Shown here piece by piece: positions 7,516 to 32,000 of a DNA stretch of 32,000 nt (the first letter of the stretch is position 1; each line of letters opens with the position of its first letter). The DNA is from Geotalea uraniireducens Rf4 (GTDB taxonomy: Bacteria; Desulfobacterota; Desulfuromonadia; Geobacterales; Geobacteraceae): assembly GCF_000016745.1 (NCBI RefSeq), contig NC_009483.1:2490001-2522000 (forward strand), given 5' to 3'. The notes beneath the pieces were generated by a model, which did not search any database, had not been told where the DNA came from, and worked only from the letters and a program-made list of their open reading frames with translations. The translations under genes were made by a program, and so were the position numbers.

Positions 7516-7533
7516 AGGAGTTATTCTCCGTTA

Positions 7534-14604: not shown

Positions 14605-14607
14605 CGG

Positions 14608-15531: not shown

Positions 15532-15547
15532 TCGCATAAACCCGCAT

Positions 15548-16591: not shown

Positions 16592-16610
16592 TTGTAGCGC
16601 TCTTCTCCAA

Positions 16611-16649
16611 CAGGATACGAAGAAGGCGGAGAACCGTTCCTCCGCCTTC
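16611..16649 (-). terminator. putative intrinsic terminator after pyrK-pyrD
   Basis: Perfect 10-bp stem GAAGGCGGAG/CTCCGCCTTC (16622-16631 and 16640-16649) with an 8-nt loop. On the minus strand it is followed by the weak U-tract UUCGUAU. Confidence 0.4.
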
Positions 16650-16678
16650 CTTAATCACAAGAAATAAAAGTCAAATAA

Positions 16679-17596: not shown

Positions 17597-17634
17597 TCTA
17601 TCTCCTTCGCTCATGCCTATCACCTATCGAATGA

Positions 17635-18450
17635 TTAATCCCATTGCAGATCACGATAATCGAAAACCGGCCCGTCCTTGCAGACGCAACGATAATCCGG
17701 CGTCTCATTCGAATGGTTACGCCCCTTCATAACGCAACCGAGACAAGCACCAACACCGCAGGCCATGTAAGCTTCCAGGGAAACCTGACAGGGAATGTCG
17801 TGCCGGCCGGCAATTGCTGCTATTGCCCGGAGCATGGGAAACGGACCGCAGGCAAAAATGGTCTTGTTGTCAATACTTTCAGACAGATGCTTTTCCAGCA
17901 CCTCTGTTACCAGGCCGCTGGCCCCCAGAGTCCCATCATCGGTGGAAACATAGGTCTCCACTCCCAGCCGTTCGAATTCGGTGATACATAGGATGTCTTC
18001 CTTGTTTCTCCCACCGGCAAAAAGACGGACTTTGGATGTTTTAACCATTTCTTTTGCCAGGTAATACAGTGGAGCCATGCCGACCCCTCCACCGACGAGG
18101 ATTTTCTCCCCTGAAGGATCACCCGGCATGAAACCCTTTCCGAGCGGCCCAAGAATATCGAGATGATCACCCTGGTGAAGCGTGGAGAGCATCTCCGTAC
18201 CCTTCCCTACTACCTTGTACAAAATTTCAAAATAGGTCTGCGTGCCGCAATCCGTATATGCCGTAGCAAAAGTACCCAGATCAAAAATGCCGAAAGGGCG
18301 CCTGAGTAAAGGATCTATGGCATCGCGCACCCTGACCATGATGAATTGCCCCGGTGTTGCACTGCGGACGGCAGGTGGTGCGGTCATTCTCATTTTGAAA
18401 TAACCGGGGGAAACCTCGATGTTGGAAATAATCATTGACTTAAACTGCAT
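17635..18450 (-). CDS. pyrK: dihydroorotate dehydrogenase electron-transfer subunit
   Basis: Start taken as ATG 18450; the ORF-track start at 18474 is a TTG. Ferredoxin-reductase-like RRPFGIF and GGGVGMAPL motifs. C-terminal 2Fe-2S cysteines CGVGACLGC...C. Confidence 0.88.
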   Translation of the reverse strand: MQFKSMIISNIEVSPGYFKMRMTAPPAVRSATPGQFIMVRVRDAIDPLLRRPFGIFDLGTFATAYTDCGTQTYFEILYKVVGKGTEMLSTLHQGDHLDILGPLGKGFMPGDPSGEKILVGGGVGMAPLYYLAKEMVKTSKVRLFAGGRNKEDILCITEFERLGVETYVSTDDGTLGASGLVTEVLEKHLSESIDNKTIFACGPFPMLRAIAAIAGRHDIPCQVSLEAYMACGVGACLGCVMKGRNHSNETPDYRCVCKDGPVFDYRDLQWD

Positions 18451-18470
18451 TGCAGCTGACCTCGCCGAAT

Positions 18471-18932
18471 TCAAGATTCAAATATATATTCCATCAAAAG
18501 TGCGTCATCGCCATTTTCATAATAGGCTTTGCGCCGCCCTGTTTCAACAAAACCAAGACTTTCGTAAAGATGTATCGCGGAGAAATTAGAAAGACGAACT
18601 TCCAATGAAACGAATTCGGCTCCCTTCTCACGGCAATCCAGCAAGACCCTTTCCACCAGCATTCTGCCTACACCCTTACCTCGGAACGCCTTGTCTACAG
18701 CCACATCGAGTATATGACCTTCGTCAATGACGAGCATTGGACAGATGTAGCCGATGACCCTATTCTTCGGGCCAAAGGCTACCAGCGGAAATGCATGGGG
18801 GGAATTGAGTTCATCAAGAAAATGGTTCCTGGCCCAAGGGCGCGGAAAAGATTCGGTTTCAATGATCAGAACCTCATCCAGATCCGTTTCAGTCATCGGA
18901 CAGATGGTTATTTCTTCAAGCCGGTTCTCCAT
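18471..18932 (-). CDS. rimI: GNAT N-acetyltransferase, RimI-like (ribosomal-protein-alanine acetyltransferase)
   Basis: 153 aa. Acetyl-CoA motif VDKAFRGKGVGRMLV. Size and layout match RimI. Confidence 0.78.
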   Translation of the reverse strand: MENRLEEITICPMTETDLDEVLIIETESFPRPWARNHFLDELNSPHAFPLVAFGPKNRVIGYICPMLVIDEGHILDVAVDKAFRGKGVGRMLVERVLLDCREKGAEFVSLEVRLSNFSAIHLYESLGFVETGRRKAYYENGDDALLMEYIFES

Positions 18933-19053
18933 TTACGGGCATCATAAGCAAAGAGGTTCCGGTTGTAAACTGTTTTTTCATTGCCAGTTTGAATTTGACT
19001 TTTGCGCCCTTATGGTTTAAATTTTTCATTTCCAATTGAAGGGGAGGATTGTT

Positions 19054-20100
19054 TTGAGCGAATCCAGAATTACCTATAAGGATGCCGGCGTAGACATCGA
19101 TGCCGGCAATACATTTGTTAAAATGATCAAACCGCTAGTCAAGGCTACGTCAAGACCAGAGGTTATAGCTGACATCGGTGGTTTTGGCGGATTGTTTTCA
19201 CTGAATTCCTCCAAGTACAAGAACCCAGTGTTGGTGTCCGGCACCGACGGTGTAGGTACCAAGCTGAAAATCGCATTTTTGGCCAATCGTCATGATACTA
19301 TCGGCATTGACCTGGTGGCCATGTGCGTCAACGACATCATTGTCCAGGGAGCGGAACCTCTCTTTTTCCTCGATTACCTCGCCACCGCAAAACTTGACCC
19401 GGAAAAGGGCGCATCCATCATCAAGGGTGTTTCGGAAGGTTGTATACAGGCAGGCTGCGCCCTGATCGGCGGAGAGACAGCAGAAATGCCCGGTTTTTAT
19501 TCCGGCGATGAATATGATATGGCCGGCTTTGCCGTCGGAGTAGTAGACCGGGACAAAATTATCGACGGCTCATCCATAACCGTTGGCAATCGTCTCATCG
19601 GTATTGCCTCCAGTGGCTTGCATAGCAACGGCTATTCCCTGGCCCGCAAGATTATCTTCGACAAAATGGGTCTTGGTATAGACGATATCATTCCGGGGCT
19701 GGACAAAACCGTAGCTGACGAACTGTTGACCCCTACCCGCATCTATGTAAGATCAATATTGAATCTGCTCAGGGATTTCCCCATAAACGGCATTGCCCAT
19801 ATTACCGGTGGCGGCCTTCTGGAAAATATTCCCAGGATACTTCCCAACGGCTGTAAAGCGCTTGTCCATAAAAATAGCTGGCAGCCGCCGCCAATTTATC
19901 AAATACTGCAAAATGCCGGCAATATCGAAGAAAATGAACTATTCAGAACCTTTAACTGCGGAATCGGCATGGTGCTGGCGGTGCCGGAAAAGGAAGCTGA
20001 TGAGGTTCTCATCAGGCTTTCCGGTCTTAACGAACATGCTTTTGTCATCGGCGAAATTGCCAAGTGCGAAGCTGGTTCAGAATGCGTTGAAATGATTTGA
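19054..20100 (+). CDS. purM: phosphoribosylformylglycinamidine cyclo-ligase (AIR synthetase)
   Basis: YKDAGVDIDAGN and DGVGTKLK motifs. Start probably TTG 19054 (GGGGAGG SD), which gives the usual N-terminal length. The ORF-track start at 19036 is also a TTG. Confidence 0.92.
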   Translation: MSESRITYKDAGVDIDAGNTFVKMIKPLVKATSRPEVIADIGGFGGLFSLNSSKYKNPVLVSGTDGVGTKLKIAFLANRHDTIGIDLVAMCVNDIIVQGAEPLFFLDYLATAKLDPEKGASIIKGVSEGCIQAGCALIGGETAEMPGFYSGDEYDMAGFAVGVVDRDKIIDGSSITVGNRLIGIASSGLHSNGYSLARKIIFDKMGLGIDDIIPGLDKTVADELLTPTRIYVRSILNLLRDFPINGIAHITGGGLLENIPRILPNGCKALVHKNSWQPPPIYQILQNAGNIEENELFRTFNCGIGMVLAVPEKEADEVLIRLSGLNEHAFVIGEIAKCEAGSECVEMI

Positions 20101-20132
20101 AGAACGGATAAATACATTTAGGTAGAACACTT

Positions 20133-20753
20133 ATGGGGAAATTACTGACAATCGGCGTATTGGTATCCGGCAACGGTACAAACCTGCAATCCATCATCGA
20201 CCATTGTGAAGATGGCAGTCTTTCCGTAAGGATTGGATGTGTAATCAGTAACAATGCCGATGCATTTGCATTGGAGAGAGCCCGGAAACACGGCATTCCC
20301 ACGAGACACATAAACCATCGAGAGTTCTCAGGTAGAGCGTCATATGATGCAGCACTGGTAAAGGTTTTACGCGAACATGACGTGGAACTGATTATTCTGG
20401 CGGGTTTTATGCGAATCATTACCCCTGTACTCATCGATGCTTTCCCTAACGCGATTATGAACATTCATCCAGCCCTTCTTCCTGCGTTTCCCGGGCTTCA
20501 TGCACAACGACAAGCACTTGAGTATGGGGTGAAAATATCCGGCTGTACCGTACATTTTGTGGATGCCGGCACCGATACCGGCCCTATTATCATGCAGGCA
20601 ACTGTTCCGGTCGATGCAAAGGACACGGAAGAAACCCTCTCAGCAAGAATACAGGCAGAAGAACACTGTATTTTCCCCAAGGCAATCCAGTTGTATGCTG
20701 ATGGCCGTTTGACAGTGGAAGGAAGAAAGGTCATCATCTCGTCCCTTGCATAG
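20133..20753 (+). CDS. purN: phosphoribosylglycinamide formyltransferase
   Basis: 206 aa. VLVSGNGTNLQ, NIHPALLP and GCTVHFVD motifs. Confidence 0.92.
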   Translation: MGKLLTIGVLVSGNGTNLQSIIDHCEDGSLSVRIGCVISNNADAFALERARKHGIPTRHINHREFSGRASYDAALVKVLREHDVELIILAGFMRIITPVLIDAFPNAIMNIHPALLPAFPGLHAQRQALEYGVKISGCTVHFVDAGTDTGPIIMQATVPVDAKDTEETLSARIQAEEHCIFPKAIQLYADGRLTVEGRKVIISSLA

Positions 20754-20782
20754 CCGACGCAATTTTCAGCGCATAAAATAAC

Positions 20783-21226
20783 CTACCTTAGACCTACCCT
20801 CTTCAGAATAATACCGAGATACTTGTTCAAAGGATTAGTTCTTTTCAGGAACGGGAGGACAGGAGGCTTTCTTGCGCCAAGTCTGTCCAGTTCAGCGGTA
20901 ATCTGAGGACTGTTCCCGTGCCCAAGGCCTTGACGGAATACCAGCATTGCTTCAGGTTTGTTCCCAAGAAGCATATATATTCGCCCAAGGTTCAGATAAT
21001 GAATCGAATTGTTTGGTTCCATCTCCATCGCCCCTTTGCATAGAGAAACGGCATTATTATATTGGCCGCGTTCTTTCGCCAGACAAAAGGCAAAGTATGA
21101 GCAAAAGGTAGGGTTATTCTCAAGCTGGAAAGCCTTTTCAAAATATGCCAACGCAGAAAGGCTGTCTCCGTTGTTGAGGGCGCTCAGTCCACGAGCAAAG
21201 AGTTTATCCGGCTCAGTACATGGCAT
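20783..21226 (-). CDS. small TPR-repeat protein
   Basis: 147 aa. Three or four TPR-like repeats (ALAYFEKAFQL, AVSLCKGAMEMEPNN, LNLGRIYMLLGNKPEAMLVFRQGL). Confidence 0.65.
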   Translation of the reverse strand: MPCTEPDKLFARGLSALNNGDSLSALAYFEKAFQLENNPTFCSYFAFCLAKERGQYNNAVSLCKGAMEMEPNNSIHYLNLGRIYMLLGNKPEAMLVFRQGLGHGNSPQITAELDRLGARKPPVLPFLKRTNPLNKYLGIILKRVGLR

Positions 21227-21493
21227 ACAGCTTCACTCCTTTGCGAACAAATCGATAACTACACTACTCAGCTTAGCATTACGCAAAGCTCATCATATTC
21301 TAAAGCCCACTGAATCTCCACCATTATTTACAGAAATACCACCGCAAGGTGGAACATAAACGGTTCCAGTGACGAGGTTTTGCTTCCTTCAAGAAAATAA
21401 TCTACAGTCTTATCGATCTGACTGATTCCCTTTTGGTATGCAATCGGCAGGATAAACGGTGAGAGAAACGACGATCAACAACTAGTCGCAAAT

Positions 21494-21525
21494 AAAAAAA
21501 GGGGTCAGACTTAATGTCTAACCCC
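21494..21525 (-). terminator. intrinsic terminator of tRNA-Ala
   Basis: Minus strand: GGGGUUAGAC-AUUAA-GUCUGACCCC followed by UUUUUUU, 10 nt after the tRNA CCA end. Confidence 0.8.
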
Positions 21526-21535
21526 TTGTTATTTA

Positions 21536-21611
<76 letters not shown>

Positions 21612-21625
21612 ATTCAAGAAAGTTG

Positions 21626-21654
21626 TTTATATCAAAACTGCTTTAACGTGTCAA
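21626..21654 (-). promoter_or_regulatory. promoter of tRNA-Ala
   Basis: Minus strand TTGACA (21654-21649), 17-nt spacer, TATAAA (21631-21626), about 15 nt upstream of the mature 5' end. Confidence 0.55.
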
Positions 21655-21699
21655 TCATTTTCTCTCACATTTTTTCTCACATTAAAATCAATTTCCTGC

Positions 21700-21728
21700 T
21701 TGACCCGCTGACAGTCATTCGTTATAAT
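21700..21728 (+). promoter_or_regulatory. promoter of tRNA-Leu
   Basis: TTGACC (21700-21705), 17-nt spacer, consensus TATAAT (21723-21728), 15 nt upstream of the tRNA. Confidence 0.6.
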
Positions 21729-21743
21729 CGCCACACAATTTAC

Positions 21744-21830
21744 GCCGGAGTGGTGAAATTGGTAGACGCACTGGACTCAAAATCCAGCGGGAGCAATCCC
21801 ATGCCGGTTCGACCCCGGCCTCCGGCACCA
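21744..21830 (+). tRNA. tRNA-Leu (anticodon CAA), type II with long variable arm
   Basis: GCCGGAGTGGTGAAATTGGTAGACGCACTGGACTCAAAATCCAGCGGGAGCAATCCCATGCCGGTTCGACCCCGGCCTCCGGCACCA. Anticodon loop CT-CAA-AA, 7-bp acceptor stem, encoded CCA. Closely resembles enterobacterial tRNA-Leu. Confidence 0.93.
21808..21830 (+). repeat. proximal copy of the 23-nt direct repeat (3' end of tRNA-Leu), candidate att core
   Basis: TTCGACCCCGGCCTCCGGCACCA recurs at 29639-29660 with a single G deleted. Confidence 0.55.
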
Positions 21831-21864
21831 TTTAACAATCCGATAAAGTACGAAGCAGCATGCG

Positions 21865-21893
21865 AAGCCCTGAGAAATCAGGGCTTTTTGTTT
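21865..21893 (+). terminator. intrinsic terminator after tRNA-Leu; homing-site hairpin of the group II intron
   Basis: AAGCCCTGA-GAAA-TCAGGGCTT followed by TTTGTTT. The intron 5' end (GTGCG) begins immediately after it, and the T-run resumes (TTTTATTG) after the intron 3' end. Confidence 0.75.
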
Positions 21894-22495
21894 GTGCGCC
21901 AGGCATGGCGCGTGGCGCGTAAGCGCCATCCAATTGGGTATGGTGCCTGATTGGTGACTTGGAGGTGAAAGTCCTCTTCGGACCCTGATGGTGGGAACCG
22001 ATAGCTGAACAGCAAGGGTGTCCGGGGCGACCCGGAATCTGAAGGAAGCTGTAGGCAAAGTCCTGGCCCGACGAACAGGAATCGCATATGAGGCAGCCAC
22101 ATCTGGGCGAGAAGGCAAACAGATTCAAAGCCCGATAACCATCCAGAAAGATGTGGAAGTAGATGCGGCGGGTATATGGGATGAAGGTCACGCGCATTAC
22201 CCTGGGAGGTCTGTCAACCTGCCTTGTGCTACCGGCATCGAGAGGTGCCGGGATGGGTTGGCAGAAGTCAGCAGAGGCCATACGAGTCGGAATAACCGAC
22301 CGACAAAGGGCCGAACTTGAAGTAAGCGGACAGGAGCCTTGAGTTTCGATGACGACAGGAGCAGCAGAAGGCCGGGTTGGGATACCCGGCGCCAGCCCGG
22401 AGGGTAGCGGTTGGAAACCGCGAGAGAAAGGGAGAGGTGCGGCAAACGTCACGGGAAGGAAAGCAGCTCACTGGCCGGAAGCGGCAACGGGACTG

Positions 22496-23752
22496 ATGGA
22501 GAAGATCGTCAGTCGCGGCAACATGATGGCGGCATACTCACGGGTAATGCGCAACAAGGGAGCGCCCGGCGTCGATAACATGCCGGTAACGGCCCTGAAG
22601 GGCTACCTACAGGAGGAATGGCCGCGCATCAGAGAAGAACTGCTGACGGGAACGTATCACCCGCAACCGGTGCGGAAAGTAGAAATTCCCAAACCGGGAG
22701 GCGGCACACGGATGCTGGGAATTCCCACCGTCCTTGACCGACTCATTCAGCAGGCGGTGCATCAAGTTTTGAGCCCGCTGTTCGACCCTGGTTTCTCCAT
22801 AAGTTCCCACGGGTTTCGCCCTGGACGGAGCGCCCATCAAGCGATCAAGGCAGCTCGGAAGTATGTAGAGAGCGGCCTTAGGTGGGTGGTTGACATTGAC
22901 CTTGAGAAATTTTTCGACCGAGTCCACCACGACACCCTTATGTCGCTGGTGAAACGCAAGGTTGGAGACCGTCTGGTGCTGTCCCTTATCGACAGCTACC
23001 TTAAGGCAGGGATACTTGAAGGAGGAGTGACGTCACCCCGGTTGGAAGGCACGCCGCAAGGCGGGCCTCTCTCGCCGCTGCTGTCCAACATCCTCCTCGA
23101 CGAACTGGACAAGAAACTGGAAAGAAGGGGCCATAAGTTCTGCCGCTATGCCGACGACGCAAATATCTATGTTGCAACGAGGAGAAGCGGCGAGCGTGTC
23201 ATGGCCTCAATTACCGGCTACCTGTCCGAGCGGCTCAAGCTCACGGTCAACCAGGGCAAAAGCGCGGTTGACCGTCCGTGGAAAAGGTCGTTTCTGAGTT
23301 ACAGCATGACCCGGCACCGCAAACCGCGGCTTACCGTGGCCAAGAAAGCGGCTGCCAGGCTCAAGGCCAACCTCAAGACGATCTTTAGGCGGGGAAGGGG
23401 TCAGAACATCCAAACCACCGTTGAAGAGACAACCCCGAAACTTAGGGGTTGGTTAAACTACTTTCGGTACGCGGAAGTAAAAGGCATCTTCGAGGAACTG
23501 GACGGATGGCTGAGACGTAAACTGCGTCGCATTCTCTGGAAGCAGTGGAAGCGCCCCAAGACGCGAGCAAAGAAACTGATGCGGCGGGGATTATCGGAGG
23601 CAACTGCATGGCGGTCGGCCACAAACGGCCGCGGCCCCTGGTGGAATGCAGGGGCCGCGCATATGAACAAAGCTGTTCCGAAATTCTACTTCGACAAACT
23701 GGGGCTGGTATCACTCATAGACCAGCTTCACCGACTTCAACGTACTTCATGA
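22496..23752 (+). CDS. group II intron reverse transcriptase/maturase (no endonuclease domain)
   Basis: Start taken at MEKIVSRGNMMAAY (ATG 22496); the longer track ORF from 22349 runs through ribozyme sequence. RT blocks PKPGGGTRMLGIPTVLDRLIQQA, HGFRPGRSAHQA, DIDLEKFFDRVHHD, GTPQGGPLSPLLSNILL and the YADD box (FCRYADDANIYV). Maturase X motif is LRGWLNYFRYA. The C-terminus ends ...FDKLGLVSL with no HNH Cys motifs. Confidence 0.9.
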   Translation: MEKIVSRGNMMAAYSRVMRNKGAPGVDNMPVTALKGYLQEEWPRIREELLTGTYHPQPVRKVEIPKPGGGTRMLGIPTVLDRLIQQAVHQVLSPLFDPGFSISSHGFRPGRSAHQAIKAARKYVESGLRWVVDIDLEKFFDRVHHDTLMSLVKRKVGDRLVLSLIDSYLKAGILEGGVTSPRLEGTPQGGPLSPLLSNILLDELDKKLERRGHKFCRYADDANIYVATRRSGERVMASITGYLSERLKLTVNQGKSAVDRPWKRSFLSYSMTRHRKPRLTVAKKAAARLKANLKTIFRRGRGQNIQTTVEETTPKLRGWLNYFRYAEVKGIFEELDGWLRRKLRRILWKQWKRPKTRAKKLMRRGLSEATAWRSATNGRGPWWNAGAAHMNKAVPKFYFDKLGLVSLIDQLHRLQRTS

Positions 23753-23784
23753 ACCGCCGTGTACGGAACCGTACGCACGGTGGT
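23753..23784 (+). ncRNA. group II intron domain V
   Basis: ACCGCCGUGUACG-GAAC-CGUACGCACGGUGGU. Lower 5-bp helix contains a CGC triad with a G.U wobble. There is a 2-nt AC bulge on the 3' strand and a 7-bp upper helix. This is the canonical domain V architecture. Confidence 0.8.
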
Positions 23785-23786
23785 GT

Positions 23787-23820
23787 GGGAGGACGGCGGG
23801 AGCAATCCCGCCTCCTACCC
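23787..23820 (+). ncRNA. group II intron domain VI with bulged branch-point A (23817)
   Basis: GGGAGGA-C-GGCGGGA-GCAA-UCCCGCC-UCCU-A-CCC. GNRA-capped helix with a single unpaired A, 6 nt before the proposed 3' splice site. Confidence 0.7.
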
Positions 23821-23825
23821 GATTT

Positions 23826-24206
23826 TTATTGTCCGTCGTTATTAACCATCGACCGGAACTCAAGATATGAGCTATCATAATCGGTCATGCTGGCGTAGAT
23901 GTAACATGCGAATGTAAGTTCAGCCAGATTCATAAAAACTATTCCTCTTCTTGCGCAGCAACCGTCCAGATACGTTTCAAAGGCAACTCAGCCTTCAAAT
24001 CCTCATCAAGTTTGTCATAGTGGGCAAAGAGCTGATCAAGTAGTTCGTTCCGCGTCCAAAGGTGCACAGTAAAGAAACTCGCTGCCAGTTCTTTTTGTAC
24101 ATTGCTCTTATAACCACTCCAGGAAACAAATGGGCGGGACGCTCAGCAAAACTCTTTTTCGCTTACAATTTCGGGTTCCAAATGGTTTCCCTCAAGAAAA
24201 ACCATC
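23826..24206 (-). pseudogene. decayed small ORFs between the intron and the IS (one frame with an internal TGA, plus a 36-codon ORF)
   Basis: Minus-strand frame: MVFLEGNHLEPEIVSEKEFC-TGA-ASRPFVSWSGYKSNVQKELAASFFTVHLWTRNELLDQLFAHYDKLDEDLKAELPLKRIWTVAAQEEE (stop at 23939-23941). It is followed 6 nt later by MNLAELTFACYIYASMTDYDSSYLEFRSMVNNDGQ (stop at 23826-23828). No family recognised and no convincing SD. Confidence 0.3.
24199..24206. repeat. left copy of the 8-bp target-site duplication AAACCATC
   Basis: The identical octamer directly abuts both IS ends (24199-24206 and 25532-25539). Confidence 0.8.
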
Positions 24207-25531
24207 GAGGGTGTAAAAAGGTTTGTGTAAATGGTCATTAGGGGGTACACCAAGTTACCCTAAGGAGATCACATGACTATTAACACCGACGTAATCGACG
24301 ATCTACTCAAACATTATAAGACCCCCGAAGAGATTCTAGGGGAAAACGGGCTGCTGAAGCAGTTGACCAAGGCTGTTCTTCAGCGGGCGCTCCAGGCTGA
24401 AATGACACTGCACCTCGGCCACGAGAAGCATGCTTCCGTTTCCGCCAAAGGTGGCAATGCACGCAATGGCTCGTCGGCAAAGACCATCAAAGGCGATTTT
24501 GGCACCATGCCGATTGAGGTCCCTCGTGACCGGGATAGCAGCTTTGAACCAGTCATCATTCCCAAAGGCCAAACCCGGTTCGCCGAGTTCGATGATAAGA
24601 TTATCTCCCTGTACTCCCGCGGGCTTACCACTCGTGAGATCCAGGGACACTTGGAGGAAATCTACGGTGTTGAAGTATCCCCCGCTCTGATTTCAATAGT
24701 GACTGAAGCAGTAGCTGAAGAGGTCAAAGCTTGGCAGAACCGCCCGTTGGATGCGCTTTATCCCATCGTTTACATGGATGCCATCAGGGTCAAAGCCAGA
24801 GGCAATGGCCATGTTGTGAACAAGGCTGTCTATCTGGCCATCGGCATCAACATAGACGGTGCCAAGGAAGTTCTGGGAATGTGGGTCTCCGAAAACGAAG
24901 GAGCCAAGTTCTGGTTGCAGGTTGTGACCGAACTTAAGAACCGTGGTGTCCAAGACATCTTCATTGCCTGCGTTGACGGCCTGAAGGGGTTCCCTGAGGC
25001 CATAGAAATAGTTTATCCCAACACTCAAGTCCAACTTTGCATCGTCCATATGGTACGCAATTCCTTGAAGTTCGTTTCGTGGAAACAACGCAAAGAAGTT
25101 GCGACAGATTTGAAGGTTATCTACCAGTCAGCGACCGCTGAGCAGGCCGAAATGGAACTGACAGCATTTGAGGCAAAATGGGACAAAACACACCCGACGA
25201 TCAGCCAGTCCTGGCGCCGGAACTGGGCGCAAGTTATACCATTTTTTGCCTATCCAGCTGATATACGAAAGGTTATTTACACAACCAATGCCATTGAATC
25301 ACTGAATATGTCACTCAGAAAGGTGACCAAAAACCGGGGCTCGTTTCCCAATGATGAGGCAATGTTCAAGTTACTATACCTGGCGCTGAGAAACATCGCG
25401 AAGAAATGGACCCTGCCGATCAGAGACTGGAAAGCTGCCATGAACCGCTTTTCCATTCTTTTTGAAGACAGAATGCCAAGCTATTAAAAACAGGGAACCA
25501 AAACCATTTACACAAAACTATTGACAGGCCC
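24207..25531 (+). mobile_element. IS256-family insertion sequence (1325 bp)
   Basis: Single mutator-type transposase ORF. Imperfect 29-bp terminal inverted repeats: GAGGGTGTAAAAAGGTTTGTGTAAATGGT at 24207-24235, against the reverse complement of 25503-25531, GGGCCTGTCAATAGTTTTGTGTAAATGGT (22/29 identical). Flanked by an 8-bp direct repeat, the size expected for IS256-family elements. Confidence 0.88.
24273..25487 (+). CDS. IS256-family (mutator-type) DDE transposase
   Basis: 404 aa with AAGGAG SD. Conserved blocks LKQLTKAVLQRALQAEMTLHLG, IVYMDAIRVK (D), FIACVDGLKGFPEAI (D), IYTTNAIESLNMSLRK (E). Confidence 0.93.
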   Translation: MTINTDVIDDLLKHYKTPEEILGENGLLKQLTKAVLQRALQAEMTLHLGHEKHASVSAKGGNARNGSSAKTIKGDFGTMPIEVPRDRDSSFEPVIIPKGQTRFAEFDDKIISLYSRGLTTREIQGHLEEIYGVEVSPALISIVTEAVAEEVKAWQNRPLDALYPIVYMDAIRVKARGNGHVVNKAVYLAIGINIDGAKEVLGMWVSENEGAKFWLQVVTELKNRGVQDIFIACVDGLKGFPEAIEIVYPNTQVQLCIVHMVRNSLKFVSWKQRKEVATDLKVIYQSATAEQAEMELTAFEAKWDKTHPTISQSWRRNWAQVIPFFAYPADIRKVIYTTNAIESLNMSLRKVTKNRGSFPNDEAMFKLLYLALRNIAKKWTLPIRDWKAAMNRFSILFEDRMPSY

Positions 25532-25539
25532 AAACCATC
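25532..25539. repeat. right copy of the 8-bp target-site duplication AAACCATC
   Basis: See the left copy. Confidence 0.8.
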
Positions 25540-25638
25540 CGAGAACTGAATATTTGTTTCAGAGTGTAGACATTACAACTTGACAAAAAGTTCACAGAAG
25601 TGTTAGCGATCCGATGGAGCGATACGTTATACGGTCTT

Positions 25639-26589
25639 CTATGGCCTTATCTCAACAATCGTACCATTTGGCGCTAACTTGGCAATTTCCTCTATTTCTT
25701 CGTCTGTTACGGCAATACACCCTTTCGTCCAGTCAACCTCTGTGTGAAAATCACCAACCCACGAGAAACCATTCTTAATTCCGTGGATCATGATGTTTCC
25801 GCCCGTAGAAACACCTAGTTCTTTTGCTCGCTTTTTGTCTCTCTCGTTTGGATAGGAAATATGAAGAGATAGGTGATAATGGCTGTCCTTGTTTCTTGAA
25901 TCGATGAAGTAGGTTCCCTCCGGGGTTTTGTTATCGCCTTGCCTTTCTTTTGGACCATTCGGGTTTCCCCCCAAGGCTATCTTGTAGGTTTTGAGCACCT
26001 CCCCCTTTGAGATCAACATCAATCGTCGTTCTTTTTTTTCTATCAGAATCTTATCTACCAATCCTTTCTGGATTGCAAAAGCAAAAACCTTTTGTTCTAG
26101 CGCTTTAATCTTTTTTTGCAGTGTAATAATTTCATTCCCCCTGCTTTCAACCTCTTGCTGGAGAGTCTCAATTTGTGTTTGCTGCGTGGTAATCATCTTA
26201 TCCTTGATAGTGACATTATTGATATAAAATATCATCCTCTCACTGTCCTGCCTGTACCCACTCCCTGGGTAGTCCTTTATGAGTTTCTGAAAACATTCCA
26301 GGGATTTCTGATAATCTTTTTGCTCATTCTTCGGATGCGCATAAATAATACCCATCTCGAATAGAACCCTGTCTCCCGTCGTGGGATATTTTTCAATAAT
26401 CTGCTCATATTTGTTCAGAGAGGCCTTGTAGTTTCCCTGGCTAAAAGAATTATTTGCTTCTTCGAAGGTTGACTTGGCCTGGAATCCTTCACTAAAGTGA
26501 CTGCATCCGCACATTAGAATTGATGTTATTATGATGCAGATAAAGAAAAAGAAAAGGTGCTCACCCTTCCTGCTTTGTTTTTTACCCAT
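25639..26589 (-). CDS. YafK/DpaA-like L,D-transpeptidase-fold lipoprotein with N-terminal TPR-like and coiled-coil region
   Basis: The C-terminal 150 aa, ERRLMLISKGEVLKTYKIALGGNPNGPKERQGDNKTPEGTYFI...YHLSLHISYPN...GGNIMIHG...DWTKGCIAVTDEEIEEI, match the YafK-type YkuD fold, including catalytic His and Cys. Start chosen at MGKKQSRKGEHLFFFFICIIITSILMCGC (26589, lipoprotein-like). ATG 26652 has a better SD (AAGGGGTGAGGAG), so the start is uncertain. Confidence 0.8.
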   Translation of the reverse strand: MGKKQSRKGEHLFFFFICIIITSILMCGCSHFSEGFQAKSTFEEANNSFSQGNYKASLNKYEQIIEKYPTTGDRVLFEMGIIYAHPKNEQKDYQKSLECFQKLIKDYPGSGYRQDSERMIFYINNVTIKDKMITTQQTQIETLQQEVESRGNEIITLQKKIKALEQKVFAFAIQKGLVDKILIEKKERRLMLISKGEVLKTYKIALGGNPNGPKERQGDNKTPEGTYFIDSRNKDSHYHLSLHISYPNERDKKRAKELGVSTGGNIMIHGIKNGFSWVGDFHTEVDWTKGCIAVTDEEIEEIAKLAPNGTIVEIRP

Positions 26590-26768
26590 ATATGTCAAAG
26601 ACGGTCTAAATCTTTTAGACAGTACAATTTGGAAGATTCTCAGTTCCCTCATCTCCTCACCCCTTGGCAGAAGCATCAGGAATATCTTGTGCTAAGAGCC
26701 TGATATCCTGGCTTAACAGGTTAAATGCTTGAGTCGTCCAGACAGACTTAAATGATGGATAAGGAAAT

Positions 26769-26790
26769 GGCAGGGTTTTGAGACCCTGCC
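26769..26790 (-). terminator. terminator hairpin after the Lpp-like gene
   Basis: Minus strand GGCAGGGU-CUCAAA-ACCCUGCC followed by AUUUCCUUAU. 8-bp GC-rich stem, 53 nt after the stop codon. Confidence 0.5.
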
Positions 26791-26843
26791 ACTTCATTAT
26801 CCGGAGCGCTAAAGGTAAAGTTAACAGCTCCCTTAAAATTGAC

Positions 26844-27122
26844 TTACTTCCTCATCGATTTCTGGAAAGCGGCGTCAGCTCTTTTCGCCTTTTCATCTGC
26901 GATCCTTTCCCTTTCCAATGCCGCCTTTTCAGCATCATCTGCCTTTAACTTGGCCACATCGGCTGCCGCCTTGGCAGCTTGCGCATCCTGCAATGCCTGA
27001 TCAGCTTTCGCATCAATCAGTTTTTGCTGCGCCTGCACTTTCTCGAGCTCACCGGTTGTTGCACAACCCATCATAGTAACGAGAACAAGCATCATTGAAA
27101 TCACCAAAAGACTTTTCTTCAT
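26844..27122 (-). CDS. Braun-lipoprotein-like small alpha-helical lipoprotein with C-terminal Lys
   Basis: 92 aa, strong SD (AAAGGAGGTG). Signal peptide ends ...LVTMMGC. The mature protein (about 73 aa) is Ala/Lys/Asp/Gln-rich with a heptad pattern (KVQAQQKLIDAKADQALQDAQAAKAAADVAKLKADDAEKAALE) and ends ...KSMRK. Compare E. coli Lpp, which ends ...TKYRK. Confidence 0.75.
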   Translation of the reverse strand: MKKSLLVISMMLVLVTMMGCATTGELEKVQAQQKLIDAKADQALQDAQAAKAAADVAKLKADDAEKAALERERIADEKAKRADAAFQKSMRK

Positions 27123-27301
27123 CTCTAATCACCTCCTTTCTGTTCAGTTTACATTATTTTAATAGTGACTGTTAAAATCCAGCGCTACTTCACAAATAAT
27201 ATTCACATTGGTTATTGATTGGTTGCAAGAACATATACCAGGAAGAGGGAACGCGTGAAGTTCACAATATCTCCCCTGAACATAAGAAAAGCTGGGATCG
27301 A

Positions 27302-28621
27302 CTATCTCTTCTTGACAGGTTCAATCAATATACCGTCTATTTCCAAATCAATTTTCAAGCGTTTGGTTGCATCTTTGGCCTCACTGATATCATTGAAAGG
27401 GCCAGCGATAACACGGTAGCTATTGCTCTTTGATAACACCATTGCCGGGATTTGTGGACCCTGGTGGTTGATAATGGTGGCAATCCTCAGAGCTTCAATC
27501 TCGTCACGCACATCAGCAGCCAAAACATACCACGCCTCCATTTTCAGTTCTGGTATTTCCGGTCTGCCATACAATTTGTCTGGGTGCTCGACTTCTATGG
27601 TTCTCGAAGCCTCTTTTTCACTTCCTTGACTCATCTCGAAGATGGGAACAGGAATCCCTCGGGCCTCGGCCTGCACTTCCTTAACTTTTCTCCAGTCAAG
27701 CGTGCGCGCCGATTTCTTTTCAATATTTCTCAATTTTGCGTATGTCTTCTCTAGCTCAATAGCGCCCGAGTCTTCCAGAGGCGTATGAGCTTCCATGTAA
27801 AGTACTCCATTACGTTGACCTATGAGATATGGCTGGTTAACAATGACTACAGGGGTATTAACTGGAGTGTCATCGTAGAGCATCTTCACGTTTTCTGGAT
27901 ATAGTCTCAAGCAGCCATTGGTTGCTTTAAGACCAATGCTGGCAGGTTTATTAGTACCATGGATCAAATAACCCGATTTGCTTAAATAGAGCGCGCATTC
28001 TCCCAAGGGATTTTGAGGTCCCGGCGGAACTTCTGCGGGCAGAGGATCGCCTTTTTTTCTATGATCCTCAGAAATTGAAGCAGGCACATGCCAGGTCGGC
28101 CGGGTTGCCTTGCGCTCCACATGCATTTGACCTGTGGGCGTGGGTCGCTCCTTGGTTCCGACACCGACCGGGTAGGTCGACACCACCAGTGACTTACTAT
28201 CCCCTTTAAATTGAAAGAGCCTCATGGTGGCTAAGTTGACCACAATGCCTTTTCTGGGAGCGTCCGGCAGGATAAAACTCAGAGGCAACATGATACGCTC
28301 TCCGGCCTCAGGCACCCATACATCTACCCCTGGATTAGCTGCACTGATTGCAATGATCCCCAGACTGAAGTGTCTTGCAATATCCGGTAGCGTATCCCCC
28401 TTTTCAAGCCTGATGACTGCCAACCGACCAATGACGTCATCTCCTCTTGCAACCGAAAACTCATTTCGTTCGATCTCCTTTTCAGGATGGCTTGGAAAAA
28501 GCCAGGATTTCTCCTGAACACTGTTCATAACAGCACATCCATTGAGAGATAAGATGAATGTACATAGAGCTATAAGACGAAGCCAATTGGATAAGAGTGA
28601 CAGGTCAACGATTCGGCACAT
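27302..28621 (-). CDS. L,D-transpeptidase of the ErfK/YbiS/YcfS/YnhG type: lipoprotein signal, LysM-like, YkuD catalytic and C-terminal SPOR domains
   Basis: 439 aa. Signal/lipobox LIALCTFILSLNGC. LysM-like LEKGDTLPDIARHFSLGIIAISAANPGV. FILPDAPRKGIVVNLATMRLFQF...PTPTG...RPTWHVPASI...NPLGECALYL...YLIHGTNKPASIGLKATNGCLRL carries the catalytic His and Cys. SPOR-like AWYVLAADVRDEIEALRIA...YRVIAGPFNDISEAKDATKRL. Confidence 0.87.
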   Translation of the reverse strand: MCRIVDLSLLSNWLRLIALCTFILSLNGCAVMNSVQEKSWLFPSHPEKEIERNEFSVARGDDVIGRLAVIRLEKGDTLPDIARHFSLGIIAISAANPGVDVWVPEAGERIMLPLSFILPDAPRKGIVVNLATMRLFQFKGDSKSLVVSTYPVGVGTKERPTPTGQMHVERKATRPTWHVPASISEDHRKKGDPLPAEVPPGPQNPLGECALYLSKSGYLIHGTNKPASIGLKATNGCLRLYPENVKMLYDDTPVNTPVVIVNQPYLIGQRNGVLYMEAHTPLEDSGAIELEKTYAKLRNIEKKSARTLDWRKVKEVQAEARGIPVPIFEMSQGSEKEASRTIEVEHPDKLYGRPEIPELKMEAWYVLAADVRDEIEALRIATIINHQGPQIPAMVLSKSNSYRVIAGPFNDISEAKDATKRLKIDLEIDGILIEPVKKR

Positions 28622-28786
28622 GGGTTAAATAAGCTACCTTTCTCAAAAATGAAAATTAATATAAATAAAAGAAATAAAAGAAGAAATAAAAGAGTCAGCC
28701 CTTGACACGGGACAAATGGCCCCCCCTCAGCTCTATGCGTCTTTAAAAGCGCAGCTCTTGCTGACTCGACCTCCTTTTTATGTTTT

Positions 28787-28900
28787 GACAACAAAAAAGC
28801 CGGGACCGAATATCGTGTGATATTTCGGCAACCCGGCTGTCTCAGTGAGACCCTGTAGGCTTTCCGCCCCACCCTCGCGGATGGTTGAGTATTATCGTTT
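28787..28900 (-). promoter_or_regulatory. GEMM-I-like cyclic-dinucleotide riboswitch unit 1 (aptamer about 28822-28900, terminator 28787-28837)
   Basis: Minus strand: AAUACUCAACC-AUCC-GCGA-GGGU-GGGGCGGAAAGCCUACAGGGUCUCACUGAGACAGCCGGGUUGCCGAAAUAUC-ACAC-GAUAUUCGGUCCCGGC-UUUUUUGUUGU. It resembles the c-di-GMP-I aptamer core (GNRA hairpin, ACGCAAAGCC-like junction, AGCNGGGUURCCGA 3' segment). The terminator 5' arm is the aptamer 3' segment. Confidence 0.6.
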
Positions 28901-28971
28901 ATCACTAACCGTCATAATACGGTGCCCTTTAAAGGCGCACCTCTTGCTGACTCGACCTCCTTTTATGTTTT

Positions 28972-29085
28972 GACAACAAAAAAGCCGGGACCGAATATCG
29001 TGTGATATTTCGGCAACCCGGCTGTCTCAGTAAGACCCGTAGGCTTTCCGCCCCATTCTTGCGAATGGTTAAGTATTATCGTCTA
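28972..29085 (-). promoter_or_regulatory. GEMM-I-like cyclic-dinucleotide riboswitch unit 2 (aptamer about 29007-29085, terminator 28972-29022)
   Basis: Paralogous copy: AAUACUUAACC-AUUC-GCAA-GAAU-GGGGCGGAAAGCCUACGGGUCUUACUGAGACAGCCGGGUUGCCGAAAUAUC... with an identical terminator. Stem differences from unit 1 all preserve pairing. Confidence 0.6.
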
Positions 29086-29105
29086 TCTCTCAAACATTTT
29101 TTTGC

Positions 29106-29133
29106 ATCTTACATTTCTATAAAGATTTGTCAA
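29106..29133 (-). promoter_or_regulatory. candidate promoter for the riboswitch leader
   Basis: Minus strand TTGACA (29133-29128), 16-nt spacer, TAAGAT (29111-29106), about 25 nt upstream of aptamer 2. Pattern only. Confidence 0.3.
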
Positions 29134-29200
29134 CATTTTTCTAAAGTCCAGTTGAGGGACCAACGGATTCGGGGGAGCTTGCAACCAGGAAAAAGACAAT

Positions 29201-29369
29201 CTAGGAGCCTGTCGGACTTAGGAATGAATCTACTGCGAGAACGGAAAATCGGTCCATATTACCGGAAATTTTCGACAAATAGGTCCACTATTCGCTCTCA
29301 AATTTCCGATAATCTGTCCTCGATTTGCCATTCTCTCGCTACGATTCCCTAAGTCCGACAGACTCCTAG
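29201..29369. mobile_element. MITE-like palindromic element (169 bp) with 22-bp terminal inverted repeats
   Basis: CTAGGAGCCTGTCGGACTTAGG (29201-29222) against CCTAAGTCCGACAGACTCCTAG (29348-29369), 21/22 complementary. There is also an internal inverted repeat (GGTCCATATTACCGGAAATTT against its complement near 29310-29331). No ORF. The terminal CTAG could instead be a 4-bp target duplication. Confidence 0.45.
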
Positions 29370-29638
29370 GGCATGCTTACCTAGGTGGACAAAAAAGCCA
29401 AGTACCTTATCGACATTCTAGGTGAAGGTGGAATTGCAAGCATCGCTGGAAAAAAAGGAACAAAATCCCCCCTCTGCCCCCCCAGGTATAACAAGTAATC
29501 GCGATGATTCTGGAATGTTCATAAGGTAAAGATCGAAGGCGTAAAAGGAGTAAGCTAAATCGTATGAGGGTATTTTGGGGGGATGTAACAAAATTCAACT
29601 TACAGTTTGCTATTGATATCAATAAGTTAATCAAGTTA

Positions 29639-29660
29639 TTCGACCCCGGCCTCCGCACCA
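29639..29660 (+). repeat. distal copy of the tRNA-Leu 3' end (candidate att site / displaced tRNA end)
   Basis: TTCGACCCCGGCCTCCGCACCA equals tRNA-Leu 21808-21830 minus one G. The upstream sequence is not tRNA-like, so this is a fragment and not a second tRNA. Confidence 0.55.
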
Positions 29661-29668
29661 ACAAAATC

Positions 29669-29704
29669 AAGGCCTCATTGTTTTTTCACCATGAGCCTTT
29701 TTGT
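29669..29704 (+). terminator. terminator-like hairpin directly after the tRNA-Leu fragment
   Basis: AAGGCCTCAT-(12-nt loop)-ATGAGCCTT followed by TTTGT, 9 nt after the CCA of the fragment. The geometry is what a native tRNA terminator would have. Confidence 0.4.
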
Positions 29705-29910
29705 CCACTTTTGCCCACCCTACTAATGCCTATGGGCCACCGGCAGGCGCAACCCCACACCCAGGCGTCCGTTCACCGTTCCCCACTTGATGGAAGTGCC
29801 CGAGCAAAGTTCCGATAGTAATTCAAGATGTCAAATATTGAATCCTGTCGATTGAAGCCCATGTGGTCCCCCCGCCCGCAGGGCGAGGAGACCTGTTTGG
29901 GAATGGATGA

Positions 29911-30939
29911 TCAGTAAGCCTGCTTATCCTCCAGCACTTCCTCTACCGTCACTTTGCCGCGGAAAACCCGATAGACCCAGATTTTATAGGCGATGACAAT
30001 CGGCAAAAACATCGCCACCACCAATGTCATGATCTTCAATGTATAGGGACTGGAGGACGAATTGAAGATTGTCAGACTATGTGCAGGATCGAGATTGGAA
30101 GGTATCAGATTCGGGAAAAGGCCAATGACGCCGGTAAAAACGACCATGAGAATCGTTACGCATGAAGAGGCGAATGCACCTAGCAGGTTGCCCTTTGCAG
30201 TAAGGATTCTGATTCCGAGCAGGGCCGCTACAGCCAGGAGCGGTACGATAAGTAAATAAGGAGCGCTGAAGTAATTGTCGTAGAGCCGTGATGCAAATTT
30301 TGTATAGCCAAGGAACGCCACCGCAACCACGAGGAGTGCAGGCCAGAGTTTATCAGCCATGGCATGGGCACGCCGGCTCAGGTCGCCGACGGTCTTGACC
30401 GAAAGGTAAAGAGCACCGTGTATCAGGAAAAGAAGCACAAACAGTATGCCGGTCAACAGTCCATAAGGATTCAGCAGGTAAATGAGCGACCCGTGATACC
30501 CCGTTGCATCCATGGGCAGACCGGCAAAGATGTTACCGAAAGCAACCCCGAAAAGAAGCGCCGGGAGAAAACTGCTGACAACAATGGCAAAATCCCATGA
30601 TCGTTTCCATAGGGCACTATCCTCTTTACCCCTGAATTCAAATGAAACCCCGCGGACAATAAGCGCAAACAACAGCAGCAGCAGAGCCGTGTAGAGATAA
30701 CTGAACATCAGCGCGTAGGTGGTGGGAAATGCTGCAAAGGTGGCGCCGCCTGCTGTTATCAACCAGACCTCGTTGCCGTCCCAGACAGGACCGATCGTAT
30801 TGATGATTACCCGCCGGTCACCATCGTTTTTTCCGAGAAAGATATGAAGCATGCCGGTGCCGAGCACAAAACCGTCTAGCATGAAATAGACTGCCCACAG
30901 TACAGCCCAAAGAACGAACCATAATATCTGTAATTCCAT
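29911..30939 (-). CDS. cydB: cytochrome bd ubiquinol oxidase subunit II
   Basis: Start moved to ATG 30939 (AGGAGGAGGG SD). MELQILWFVLWAVLWAVYFMLDGF is the typical CydB N-terminus. Polytopic throughout. Confidence 0.9.
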   Translation of the reverse strand: MELQILWFVLWAVLWAVYFMLDGFVLGTGMLHIFLGKNDGDRRVIINTIGPVWDGNEVWLITAGGATFAAFPTTYALMFSYLYTALLLLLFALIVRGVSFEFRGKEDSALWKRSWDFAIVVSSFLPALLFGVAFGNIFAGLPMDATGYHGSLIYLLNPYGLLTGILFVLLFLIHGALYLSVKTVGDLSRRAHAMADKLWPALLVVAVAFLGYTKFASRLYDNYFSAPYLLIVPLLAVAALLGIRILTAKGNLLGAFASSCVTILMVVFTGVIGLFPNLIPSNLDPAHSLTIFNSSSSPYTLKIMTLVVAMFLPIVIAYKIWVYRVFRGKVTVEEVLEDKQAY

Positions 30940-30952
30940 AATTTCCCTCCTC

Positions 30953-32000
30953 CTAATTTCTTGTCGGTTTAATGATGGCTGAAAGATCGTCATCCGGCCC
31001 TTTTCGGGCAAGCTTGGTCAGCAGATAGATATCGATGCAGCCGAGTGTGCCGTAAAGGAGGGTAAAGCCGATCAGCGAAACGAGAACCTGGGGAGTACTG
31101 ATGGCTTTGGAAACGGCATCCGAGGTCTTTAGAACGCCGTAGACGATCCAGGGTTGACGCCCCATTTCAGCCACAATCCAGCCGAGTTGATTGGCGATGT
31201 AGGGAAGTGGAAGAGCAAACAACATGATCTTGAGAAACAGCGGATAGTTTTCCAGTTTCCCTTTTCGGGAGAGAAATACCGCGACCAGCGAAAGGACGAA
31301 GAACAGGATGCCGAGACCGACCATGAGCCTGAAGCTGTAGAAAACCGGTGTGACCGGCGGACGTTCCGATTTGGGGAAGTCCTTCAAACCTTTGATTTCC
31401 GCATTTGGCGTATGAAATGCCAGCAAGCTCACCATGTTGGGGATGCAGATACGTTCGAGGGCGTTACATTCCTTAATCTCATCGGGAATAAGCAAAAGGT
31501 TCAACCCTACTCCGCGCTTGGTTTCCCAGACCGACTCCATGGCAGCGAATTTGGCCGGCTGGGTCTTGGCCACCTCCACCGCATGGAAATCGCCGATGAC
31601 CGCCACCAGCAGGGTAGAAACCAGGCCGAAGGTCGCCGCCATCTTGAAGGAAGTTTTAAAAAAATCCGGCTTGTTTTTTTTCAGGAGATGCCACGCGGAT
31701 ACACCCATGACAAAGAACGCCGCCACCGTGTAACCGGAAACAATCTGGTGACCGAACTTCAGAAGGCCGTAGGGGTTTGTCACCATTGCCATGAAATCCA
31801 CCATCTCTGCCCTGCCGTTTCTCAGCACATACCCCACCGGATGCTGCATCCAACCGTTGGCCAACAGTATCCAGAGACCGGATAGATTTGTTGCGATGGC
31901 TACCAGCCAGATGGATATGGCGTGCATTTTCTTCGACACCTTGTTCCAGCCGAATATCCAGACGCCGATAAACACGGACTCCAGGAAGAATGCCATGGTC
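30953..32000 (-). CDS. cydA: cytochrome bd ubiquinol oxidase subunit I, C-terminal part (N-terminus beyond the window end)
   Basis: AFFLESVFIGVWIFGW, the Q-loop region, and GWIVAEMGRQPWIVYGVLKT are hallmark CydA segments. The frame is open to the window edge. Confidence 0.9.
   Translation of the reverse strand, partial: TMAFFLESVFIGVWIFGWNKVSKKMHAISIWLVAIATNLSGLWILLANGWMQHPVGYVLRNGRAEMVDFMAMVTNPYGLLKFGHQIVSGYTVAAFFVMGVSAWHLLKKNKPDFFKTSFKMAATFGLVSTLLVAVIGDFHAVEVAKTQPAKFAAMESVWETKRGVGLNLLLIPDEIKECNALERICIPNMVSLLAFHTPNAEIKGLKDFPKSERPPVTPVFYSFRLMVGLGILFFVLSLVAVFLSRKGKLENYPLFLKIMLFALPLPYIANQLGWIVAEMGRQPWIVYGVLKTSDAVSKAISTPQVLVSLIGFTLLYGTLGCIDIYLLTKLARKGPDDDLSAIIKPTRN

Follow-up and report, generated by a model that had tools for sequence, protein, structure and literature searches.

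The stretch analysed here (the window) comprises 32,000 nt of Geotalea uraniireducens Rf4 (contig NC_009483.1, forward-strand positions 2,490,001 to 2,522,000). The subject is a 7.8-kb interval within it, which lies between an intact tRNA-Leu(CAA) gene and cydBA and is bounded on both sides by a short direct repeat of the 3′ end of that tRNA (Table 1). A first-pass annotation of the window had read the interval as an old, immobilised island without an integrase gene, and the contents that it listed (a group II intron, an IS256 insertion sequence, an L,D-transpeptidase/Lpp cluster with riboswitches, and a miniature inverted-repeat transposable element, MITE) were all recovered by Rfam, Pfam and repeat searches.

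Transfer RNA genes were identified using ARAGORN, RNAs using Rfam, protein domains using Pfam and NCBIfam, and folding was predicted with RNAfold; terminators and promoters were sought using a consensus terminator scan and a promoter scan. The comparison set (L001-L044) consisted of metagenome contigs and Geobacteraceae genomes, including Geotalea sp. SG265 (L026; NZ_JAKZFT010000011.1) and a groundwater contig of 96.7 kb (L006) with flanks 95-97% identical to the window. Relatives with an empty site (L040-L042) were found via the genomic contexts of CydB homologues. A genome scan anchored on tRNA-Leu covered 19 other Geobacteraceae species and served to record flank types and the occurrence of integrases; purMN, cydAB or the envelope module described below lay near tRNA-Leu in none of the 19.

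The tRNA-Leu(CAA) repeat and its surroundings

The last 23 nt of tRNA-Leu(CAA), from the first base of the T-loop to CCA, recur at 29639-29660 as 17 exact nucleotides, one deleted G and five more exact nucleotides. Both this statement of the first-pass annotation and its companion, that the sequence upstream of the second copy is not tRNA-like, were borne out by sequence comparison. Allowing up to three mismatches, no further copy of the 22-mer was found in the window, and none of 100 dinucleotide-preserving shuffles contained a match. Among all fetched loci, extra copies of the repeat occurred only at the orthologous position beside cydB (L001-L003 and L011), and a metagenome scan for the repeat together with its flank returned a single contig (L011). 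Copies at many unrelated sites, as would be expected of a dispersed tRNA-derived repeat or MITE family, were not found in the window or the fetched loci. A promoter-like site of the tRNA-Leu gene lies at 21700-21728.

Two further matches to this tRNA were recorded. The 14 nt GCGGGAGCAATCCC occur identically in the variable arm of tRNA-Leu (21787-21800) and in the domain V/VI part of the intron (23796-23809), which is probably a coincidence, both sites being GC-rich hairpins. In another Geobacteraceae metagenome-assembled genome (L028 2060-2079), a degenerate second tRNA-Leu 3′ end, TTCGACCCCGGCCCCGCCCA, lies within an open reading frame (ORF) 1.95 kb downstream of the tRNA, and could be chance or another relic. 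Elsewhere in the window and outside the interval, the G+C content at 7000-14000 is 0.37-0.45, as compared to ~0.47-0.56 in the rest.

Table 1. Features of the window from the tRNA genes to cydBA, with the assignments proposed here.
Feature	Position	Strand	Basis or remark
tRNA-Ala(GGC)	21536-21611	-	ARAGORN
tRNA-Leu(CAA), intact; putative integration target, reconstituted at attL	21744-21830	+	ARAGORN; Rfam RF00005
Putative attL, 23-nt repeat copy running from T-loop to CCA	21808-21830	+	TTCGACCCCGGCCTCCGGCACCA
Putative island-derived arm next to the tRNA	21831-21893	+	differs from L042 native flank
Terminator of the arm	21864-21887	+	consensus terminator scan
Group II intron, starts GTGCG	21894-23822	+	Rfam RF02001, RF01998, RF00029
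Intron reverse transcriptase/maturase ORF	22349-23752	+	Pfam RVT_1, GIIM
Continuation of the arm beyond the intron	23823-23882	+	contiguous with 21893 in L006 and L009; aligned with L026 and L014
Segment X, putative island debris	23883-24206	-	present in L009, absent from L006
C-terminal gene fragment of 67 codons (…HLWTRNELLDQLFAHYDKLDEDLKAELPLKRIWTVAAQEEE)	23942-24142	-	no family match
IS256-family insertion sequence	24207-25531	+	Pfam Transposase_mut, E = 1.8e-127; inverted repeats
IS256 transposase	24273-25487	+	
YkuD L,D-transpeptidase-fold protein, TPR/BamD-like N-terminal region; third module gene	25639-26676	-	Pfam YkuD, YfiO, TPR
Lpp/OprI-family alanine-zipper lipoprotein	26844-27122	-	Pfam Alanine_zipper; NCBIfam NF040598, 90.6 bits (cut-off 43)
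YkuD L,D-transpeptidase with C-terminal SPOR domain; first module gene	27302-28621	-	Pfam YkuD, SPOR
Module leader, two tandem c-di-GMP-I aptamers	28741-29133	-	Rfam RF01051, two matches
MITE-like element, 22-nt terminal inverted repeats, CTAG on both sides	29201-29369	.	inverted repeat
Pseudogene remnant, first ~24 codons of a 145-aa ORF, stop at codon 4	29370-29442	+	93% identical to L031 9346-9272
Right-hand island end, AT-rich, no coding signal; probable attP-derived arm	29443-29638	.	no Pfam match in any frame
Putative attR copy of the repeat, displaced original tRNA-Leu 3′ end, 22/23 nt	29639-29660	+	TTCGACCCCGGCCTCCGCACCA
Putative decayed native tRNA-Leu terminator (hairpin 29669-29704 and T-run)	29661-29712	+	collinear alignment with L042 and L040 flanks
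Remnant of a conserved 436-aa ORF, 68 bp	29734-29801	-	82-87% identical to internal part of the ORF in L037, L038, L040-L043
cydB, conserved right-hand chromosomal flank	29911-30939	-	Pfam Cyt_bd_oxida_II
cydA	from 30953		Pfam Cyt_bd_oxida_I

Empty sites, the native flank and the arm beside the tRNA

Relatives in which tRNA-Leu with its own terminator adjoins a 436-aa ORF and cydBA, with no island between, were found in L040-L042. The order in L042 is Rrf2, cydA, cydB, the 436-aa ORF, a strong terminator, an intact convergent tRNA-Leu(CAA), a spacer and the start of tRNA-Ala; the tRNA-Leu gene (4706-4792) lies 150 nt from the 436-aa ORF and cydBA, and nothing from window 21832-29733 is present. 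Window 21584-21831 is 96.4% identical to L042, with the alignment ending one base past the CCA (21830), while on the far side window 29815-32000 is aligned at 93%, the identity also found for cydAB. L040 and L041, whose cydAB is likewise ~93% identical, are arranged as L042.

The DNA beyond the second repeat copy corresponds to this native flank. Alignment of window 29661-29735 with the native flanks of L042 and L040 gave a score of 37 (shuffle mean 21, standard deviation 3.8), which was reached by one (L042) and two (L040) of 500 shuffles; the flank that follows the intact tRNA gave no alignment with the native flank, its score being reached by 286 of 500 shuffles. Of the 19 other species, at least 12 have a terminator of the type AAGGC...GCCTTTTT starting 8-12 nt after CCA, and the hairpin behind the repeat copy shares the position and motif of these terminators. 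The first-pass annotation had called this hairpin (29669-29704) terminator-like; a hairpin and a T-run are present, but the hairpin is imperfect (-10.8 kcal/mol by RNAfold) and is not called by the consensus terminator scan. Within the relatives, the 436-aa ORF lies between cydB and tRNA-Leu on the same strand as cydAB (L037 3075-4385; L040 6122-7432); it has no Pfam or NCBIfam match, is split in two in L042 and L043, and is nearly all deleted in the window. The synteny of cydBA is kept in L006, L011, L037 and L040-L044.

We regard it as very likely that the repeat marks the attL and attR junctions of an integrative element, and that this element entered the 3′ part of tRNA-Leu(CAA) by site-specific recombination in an ancestral member of the lineage. 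The earlier proposal of an integration scar at a tRNA 3′ end, with the original end and terminator displaced, is supported by the empty site and by the orthology of the native flank. Because L006 and L009/L010 have the arm next to the tRNA and L011 has attR, the element predates the divergence from these relatives. Its description as old and immobilised is likewise supported.

The tRNA-side end of the interval resembles those of integrase-bearing relatives. In the window, L006 and L009 the intact tRNA is followed by a terminator 30 nt away and then by a TTGTCC motif. Window 21532-21897 is 80% identical to L026, including 67 nt after CCA and the conserved TTGTCC, and in L026 a P4-like integrase starts ~180 nt after tRNA-Leu. 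The layout of L014 is as in L026: its integrase, with the domains Arm-DNA-bind_3, Phage_int_M and Phage_integrase, follows the tRNA in the same orientation. L013 has an integrase (DUF6538/Phage_integrase) beside tRNA-Leu. Neither Pfam nor tblastn revealed an integrase gene in the interval, in agreement with the first-pass annotation. Its further suggestion, that the integrase was lost next to the tRNA, fits the arm shared with L026, but no remnant was found in the debris regions: tblastn with the integrases of L013, L014 and L026 gave no match inside the interval better than E = 2.9, and Pfam searches of all ORFs and of six-frame fragments of 23823-24206, 25532-25640 and 29370-29860 gave no integrase. 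An integrase-like motif, GGQKS...YR, at 29383-29425 and in a 45-codon ORF of L011 was without Pfam or tblastn support, and 29370-29442 was ruled out as an integrase N-terminus since it is the start of the unrelated 145-aa ORF.

Viral contigs and plasmids were also searched. A scan of viral contigs for the arm terminator pattern returned three unrelated contigs with only the hairpin in common, and for the right-arm junction it returned no match; relatives of the integrases in that scan were only 35-53% identical. The right-hand end of the interval (29443-29638) is present in L011 and has no homologue in L031, L006 or plasmids, and the 471-bp segment that carries the repeat likewise gave no match to plasmids.

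Other occupants of such sites were seen in the comparison set. In L037 and L038 (cydAB 86% identical) the right flank is that of the empty-site relatives, but of tRNA-Leu only the 3′ 56 nt are present there, beginning at the anticodon loop and adjoined by prophage-like genes. This fragment is the attR of another element integrated in this tRNA, with a 56-nt repeat and hence a crossover position that differs from that of the window's element. The prophage-like region (L037 4498-12929) has paired HTH_3 regulators, a CII-like protein, a Tad2-like protein and DUF3799. In L011 (4958-5357), beside thrS, the 46-nt 3′ half of another tRNA lies on the minus strand with no 5′ half, followed by AT-rich DNA and the 45-codon ORF, which is truncated by the MITE; this resembles the attR that a second decayed element would leave.

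Later insertions account for ~3.4 kb (intron, IS256 and MITE) of the 7.8 kb between the repeats, so that ~4.4 kb remains. Homology to relatives breaks at ~23882, 24138 and 29442, apparently at internal deletion joints. The description as a 7.8-kb island therefore holds in that the repeats delimit it, but not in the sense of a single intact unit. The intron, whose protein has reverse transcriptase and maturase domains and no endonuclease domain, starts directly after the T-run of the arm terminator and is precisely absent from L006 and L009. Group IIC introns insert downstream of intrinsic terminators (PMC1702495), and the position of the window intron is typical of that class, to which it is tentatively assigned by position and domains; as a passenger among the remains of the island, it stands outside the integration event. 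The IS256 element is flanked by an 8-bp target duplication, AAACCATC (24199-24206 and 25532-25539); L009, L006 and L031 lack it, and at this point their alignments overlap by 8 bp. Within segment X, the 67-codon fragment is presumably debris of a lost island gene, and the last 68 bp of the segment (24139-24206) are common to L031.

The MITE is absent from L031, where its flanks are contiguous and read CTGG, as does the site in L005. In L011 the same MITE (5354-5522) has a different chromosomal region as its left neighbour, three Logan assemblies break inside it, and in L009 (1-140) a different sequence, ending 5′-...TATGTCTAG and with a gene start ~125 bp inside, adjoins the same CTAG at the contig end. 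This position appears to have been targeted repeatedly and to have served as a breakpoint for rearrangement. The ORF whose start follows the MITE in the window is intact in L031 (8904-9341), as the divergent neighbour of the module, and like the 436-aa ORF and the 67-codon fragment it has no family match.

The envelope module and competing readings

The remaining genes of the interval form an envelope module of an Lpp/OprI-family lipoprotein and two L,D-transpeptidase-fold proteins. The YkuD-SPOR protein is LdtE/ErfK-like, below the cut-off; the best 120 of its 6654 homologues are 79-99% identical, and those named among these 120 are Geobacteraceae, Desulfuromonas or Deltaproteobacteria. The YkuD-TPR protein has weak similarity to DpaA/YafK. 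The two cyclic di-GMP (c-di-GMP) aptamers of the leader (29009-29084 and 28824-28900) lie inside a 185-bp tandem duplication, with a promoter-like site at 29133-29106, and all the module copies scanned with Rfam (L005 9537-9831, L006 9636-9927, L008 9647-9932) are preceded by the same aptamer pair in tandem. Among GEMM-I RNAs, some of those from Geobacter are known to differ in ligand specificity, with c-di-GMP and cyclic GMP-AMP (cGAMP) as the alternatives.

The module sits in several different contexts (window, L005, L008, L031, L032, L033). In L005, L032 and L033 it has neighbours in common, in shuffled order (a radical SAM protein, a PilZ response regulator and an M23 peptidase), which suggests that the module has a usual neighbourhood. 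The window allele is 96-97% identical to that of L005, at another locus, and 84-94% identical to that of L006, at the same locus. The displaced native end of the tRNA is on the far side of the module, which hence came to this locus together with the element or later; it is probably relocated cargo that rode in on the element. The first-pass annotation had likewise proposed horizontally acquired cargo; the closest allele does lie in another neighbourhood, but the composition is not foreign; the proposal is likely.

Several observations weigh against integration of an element as described above. The empty site is seen on short contigs assembled from metagenomes (5-7.6 kb), of which several independent ones agree. 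L006 keeps the gene order with one copy of the repeat only. L026 and L014 were compared at their tRNA-side ends, and a 23-nt core in common with them would be a supposition. An integrase remnant was not detected in the interval by tblastn with the three integrases or by Pfam. Lastly, the composition of the interval is not distinctive against the flanks: the module has a GC content of 0.442 and a tetranucleotide correlation with the flanks of 0.755, both within the range of 3.7-kb flank windows (GC 0.40-0.53; r 0.72-0.93), and only the intron stands out.

A first alternative accepts the att relic as real and holds that the interior is not one element, the site being a hotspot at which the module arrived separately, by recombination into what was left of an earlier island, from a close donor that has it in its usual neighbourhood. 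The allele identities given above point this way, the match to L005 being closer than that to L006 despite L006 flanks that are ~97% identical. Furthermore, a block that runs from the end of segment X through the module to the first part of the 145-aa ORF recurs in the unrelated context of L031, and the breaks in homology at ~23882, 24138 and 29442 bound distinct pieces. Identity between the window and L009 is itself a mosaic (window 13600-29200), being 99-100% at ~20.2-29.2 kb and 91-99% (mostly 94-97%) leftward, which indicates recombination tracts within the population; the identity of L006 to the window shows the opposite trend. However, only two repeat copies are present, with no internal att copy of the kind that results from tandem accretion; alleles of original cargo, too, would be replaced by homologous recombination; and a mechanism-specific scar of the module's own insertion was not found. 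We consider separate arrival possible, though on the whole rather unlikely.

A second alternative is that the order tRNA-Leu, module, cydBA is ancestral, as in L006, and that the repeat lies within a later 640-bp insertion and delimits nothing. The order in L006 (purM, purN, TPR, tRNA-Ala, tRNA-Leu, the three-gene module with two riboswitches, cydBA) is that of the window without the second repeat copy. The window has three extra blocks as compared to L006: the group II intron (21894-23822), segment X with IS256 (23883-25553), and the MITE with ~470 bp carrying the repeat (29202-29841). The last of these, 640 bp long, has AATC on both sides, and one of its edges is the MITE end. Nevertheless, L040-L042 have the tRNA directly beside the 436-aa ORF and cydBA, and the block holds the native terminator's orthologue as well as what is left of the 436-aa ORF. 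The block is also no unit: the ~470-bp segment is composite because its first 75 bp are the start of the 145-aa ORF, intact in L031 as the module's native neighbour.

Other relatives carry parts of the window arrangement. L009/L010 are 99% identical to the window at 20.2-29.2 kb and lack the intron and IS256 while having segment X; in L011 the MITE, the ~470 bp and cydBA are 98-100% identical to the window, with thrS and a truncated tRNA rather than the module to the left of the MITE; and L031, with the module in its unrelated context, has window 24139-24206 and, across a MITE-free CTGG, 29368-29442. As for L006, its tRNA carries the island-type, non-native flank, and where its cydB flank meets the module there is GGATT microhomology, such as a deletion would be expected to leave. 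On these two grounds we infer that L006 would have lost attR by secondary deletion. An ancestral order is accordingly very improbable, and the readings of L006 as a refutation and of 29202-29841 as a lineage-specific insertion were rejected in view of the composite block, the arm in L006, the empty site and the native flank. The case carries a warning as to method, as a close relative with the same order and no repeat was misleading and only a more distant one showed the empty site.

A chance match, or membership of the repeat in a dispersed tRNA-derived family, is favoured only by the short length of the repeat and has a negligible probability given the shuffles, the one extra copy in the window with others only at the orthologous site beside cydB, and the single contig of the metagenome scan, again beside cydBA.

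Proposed history, known systems and implications

For integration of an element into tRNA-Leu(CAA), the repeat, the empty site, the orthologous native flank, the homology of the arm to that of an integrase-bearing island, the missing integrase and the later insertions are observed; in the history that follows we infer the type of integrase, the position of the crossover, the order of the decay events and the status of the module as cargo. The ancestral order would have been purM-purN-TPR-tRNA-Ala-tRNA-Leu and the native terminator, followed by the convergent 436-aa ORF, cydB and cydA. A tyrosine integrase, most likely P4-like, would have crossed attP with the tRNA between the T-loop and CCA. 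The same 23 nt that end the tRNA would have been present in attP; the version brought by the element would now complete the gene (21808-21830), and the original 3′ end with its terminator would have been displaced to the far side (29639-29712). During subsequent decay, the integrase and most other genes would have been deleted; the group II intron would have entered behind the arm terminator, and IS256 and the MITE elsewhere; most of the 436-aa ORF in the native flank would have been lost, and attR would have lost one G.

Genomic islands are inserted at tRNA 3′ ends, are flanked by perfect or near-perfect direct repeats of ~16-20 bp, are absent from close strains, carry a functional or cryptic integrase, deviate in nucleotide statistics and span 10-200 kb, with those below 10 kb termed islets; those in ‘evolutionary regression’ have functions missing (Juhas et al. 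2009, PMC2704930). By that definition the window element is an islet, and it resembles such islands in its tRNA 3′ end, near-perfect repeat, absence from a relative, insertion sequence and regression, while it differs in the lack of an integrase, the chromosome-like composition and the length of 7.8 kb (PMC2704930).

The closest parallel is found in Escherichia coli. There the satellite phage P4 and a pathogenicity island (PAI II) of uropathogenic strains integrate in the 3′ end of leuX, a tRNA-Leu(CAA) gene. The window element has in common with these the tRNA isoacceptor, the short tRNA-3′-end repeat and the restoration of the tRNA by the element, and directly behind the tRNA, on its strand, L026 and L014 encode a P4-type integrase. 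In contrast, the window has no integrase, retains only ~4.4 kb of original DNA, belongs to a host of the Geobacteraceae, and has as cargo an envelope-tethering operon rather than virulence or phage genes. In Streptococcus thermophilus, cis-mobilisable elements (CIMEs) are att-flanked, integrase-less remnants of integrative elements. The islet is similar in that two att-type repeats enclose DNA without recombination genes of its own, and dissimilar in that its attR lacks one base, its surroundings are eroded and no cognate integrase is known in the genome. Its mobilisation in trans appears unlikely, and what remains of it would be unable to move.

The event itself is of an ordinary, textbook kind. 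For annotation, 21831-29660 is to be treated as a degenerate genomic islet and the 22-nt segment as attR, not as a tRNA pseudogene. As predicted from its gene content, the only functional part of the islet is the riboswitch-controlled Lpp/L,D-transpeptidase operon; these would be its sole working genes, devoted to tethering of the outer membrane to peptidoglycan under two riboswitches of the c-di-GMP class, and they would be located here by relocation rather than by ancestry. More tentatively still, the tandem-riboswitch cassette, with Lpp and two L,D-transpeptidase-fold enzymes, might be a discrete trait exchanged among Geobacteraceae via tRNA-Leu elements and recombination, a proposal that we hold to be unlikely as matters stand. 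If true, outer-membrane-to-peptidoglycan tethering, normally part of the core envelope architecture, would be horizontally swapped in this family under cyclic-dinucleotide control.

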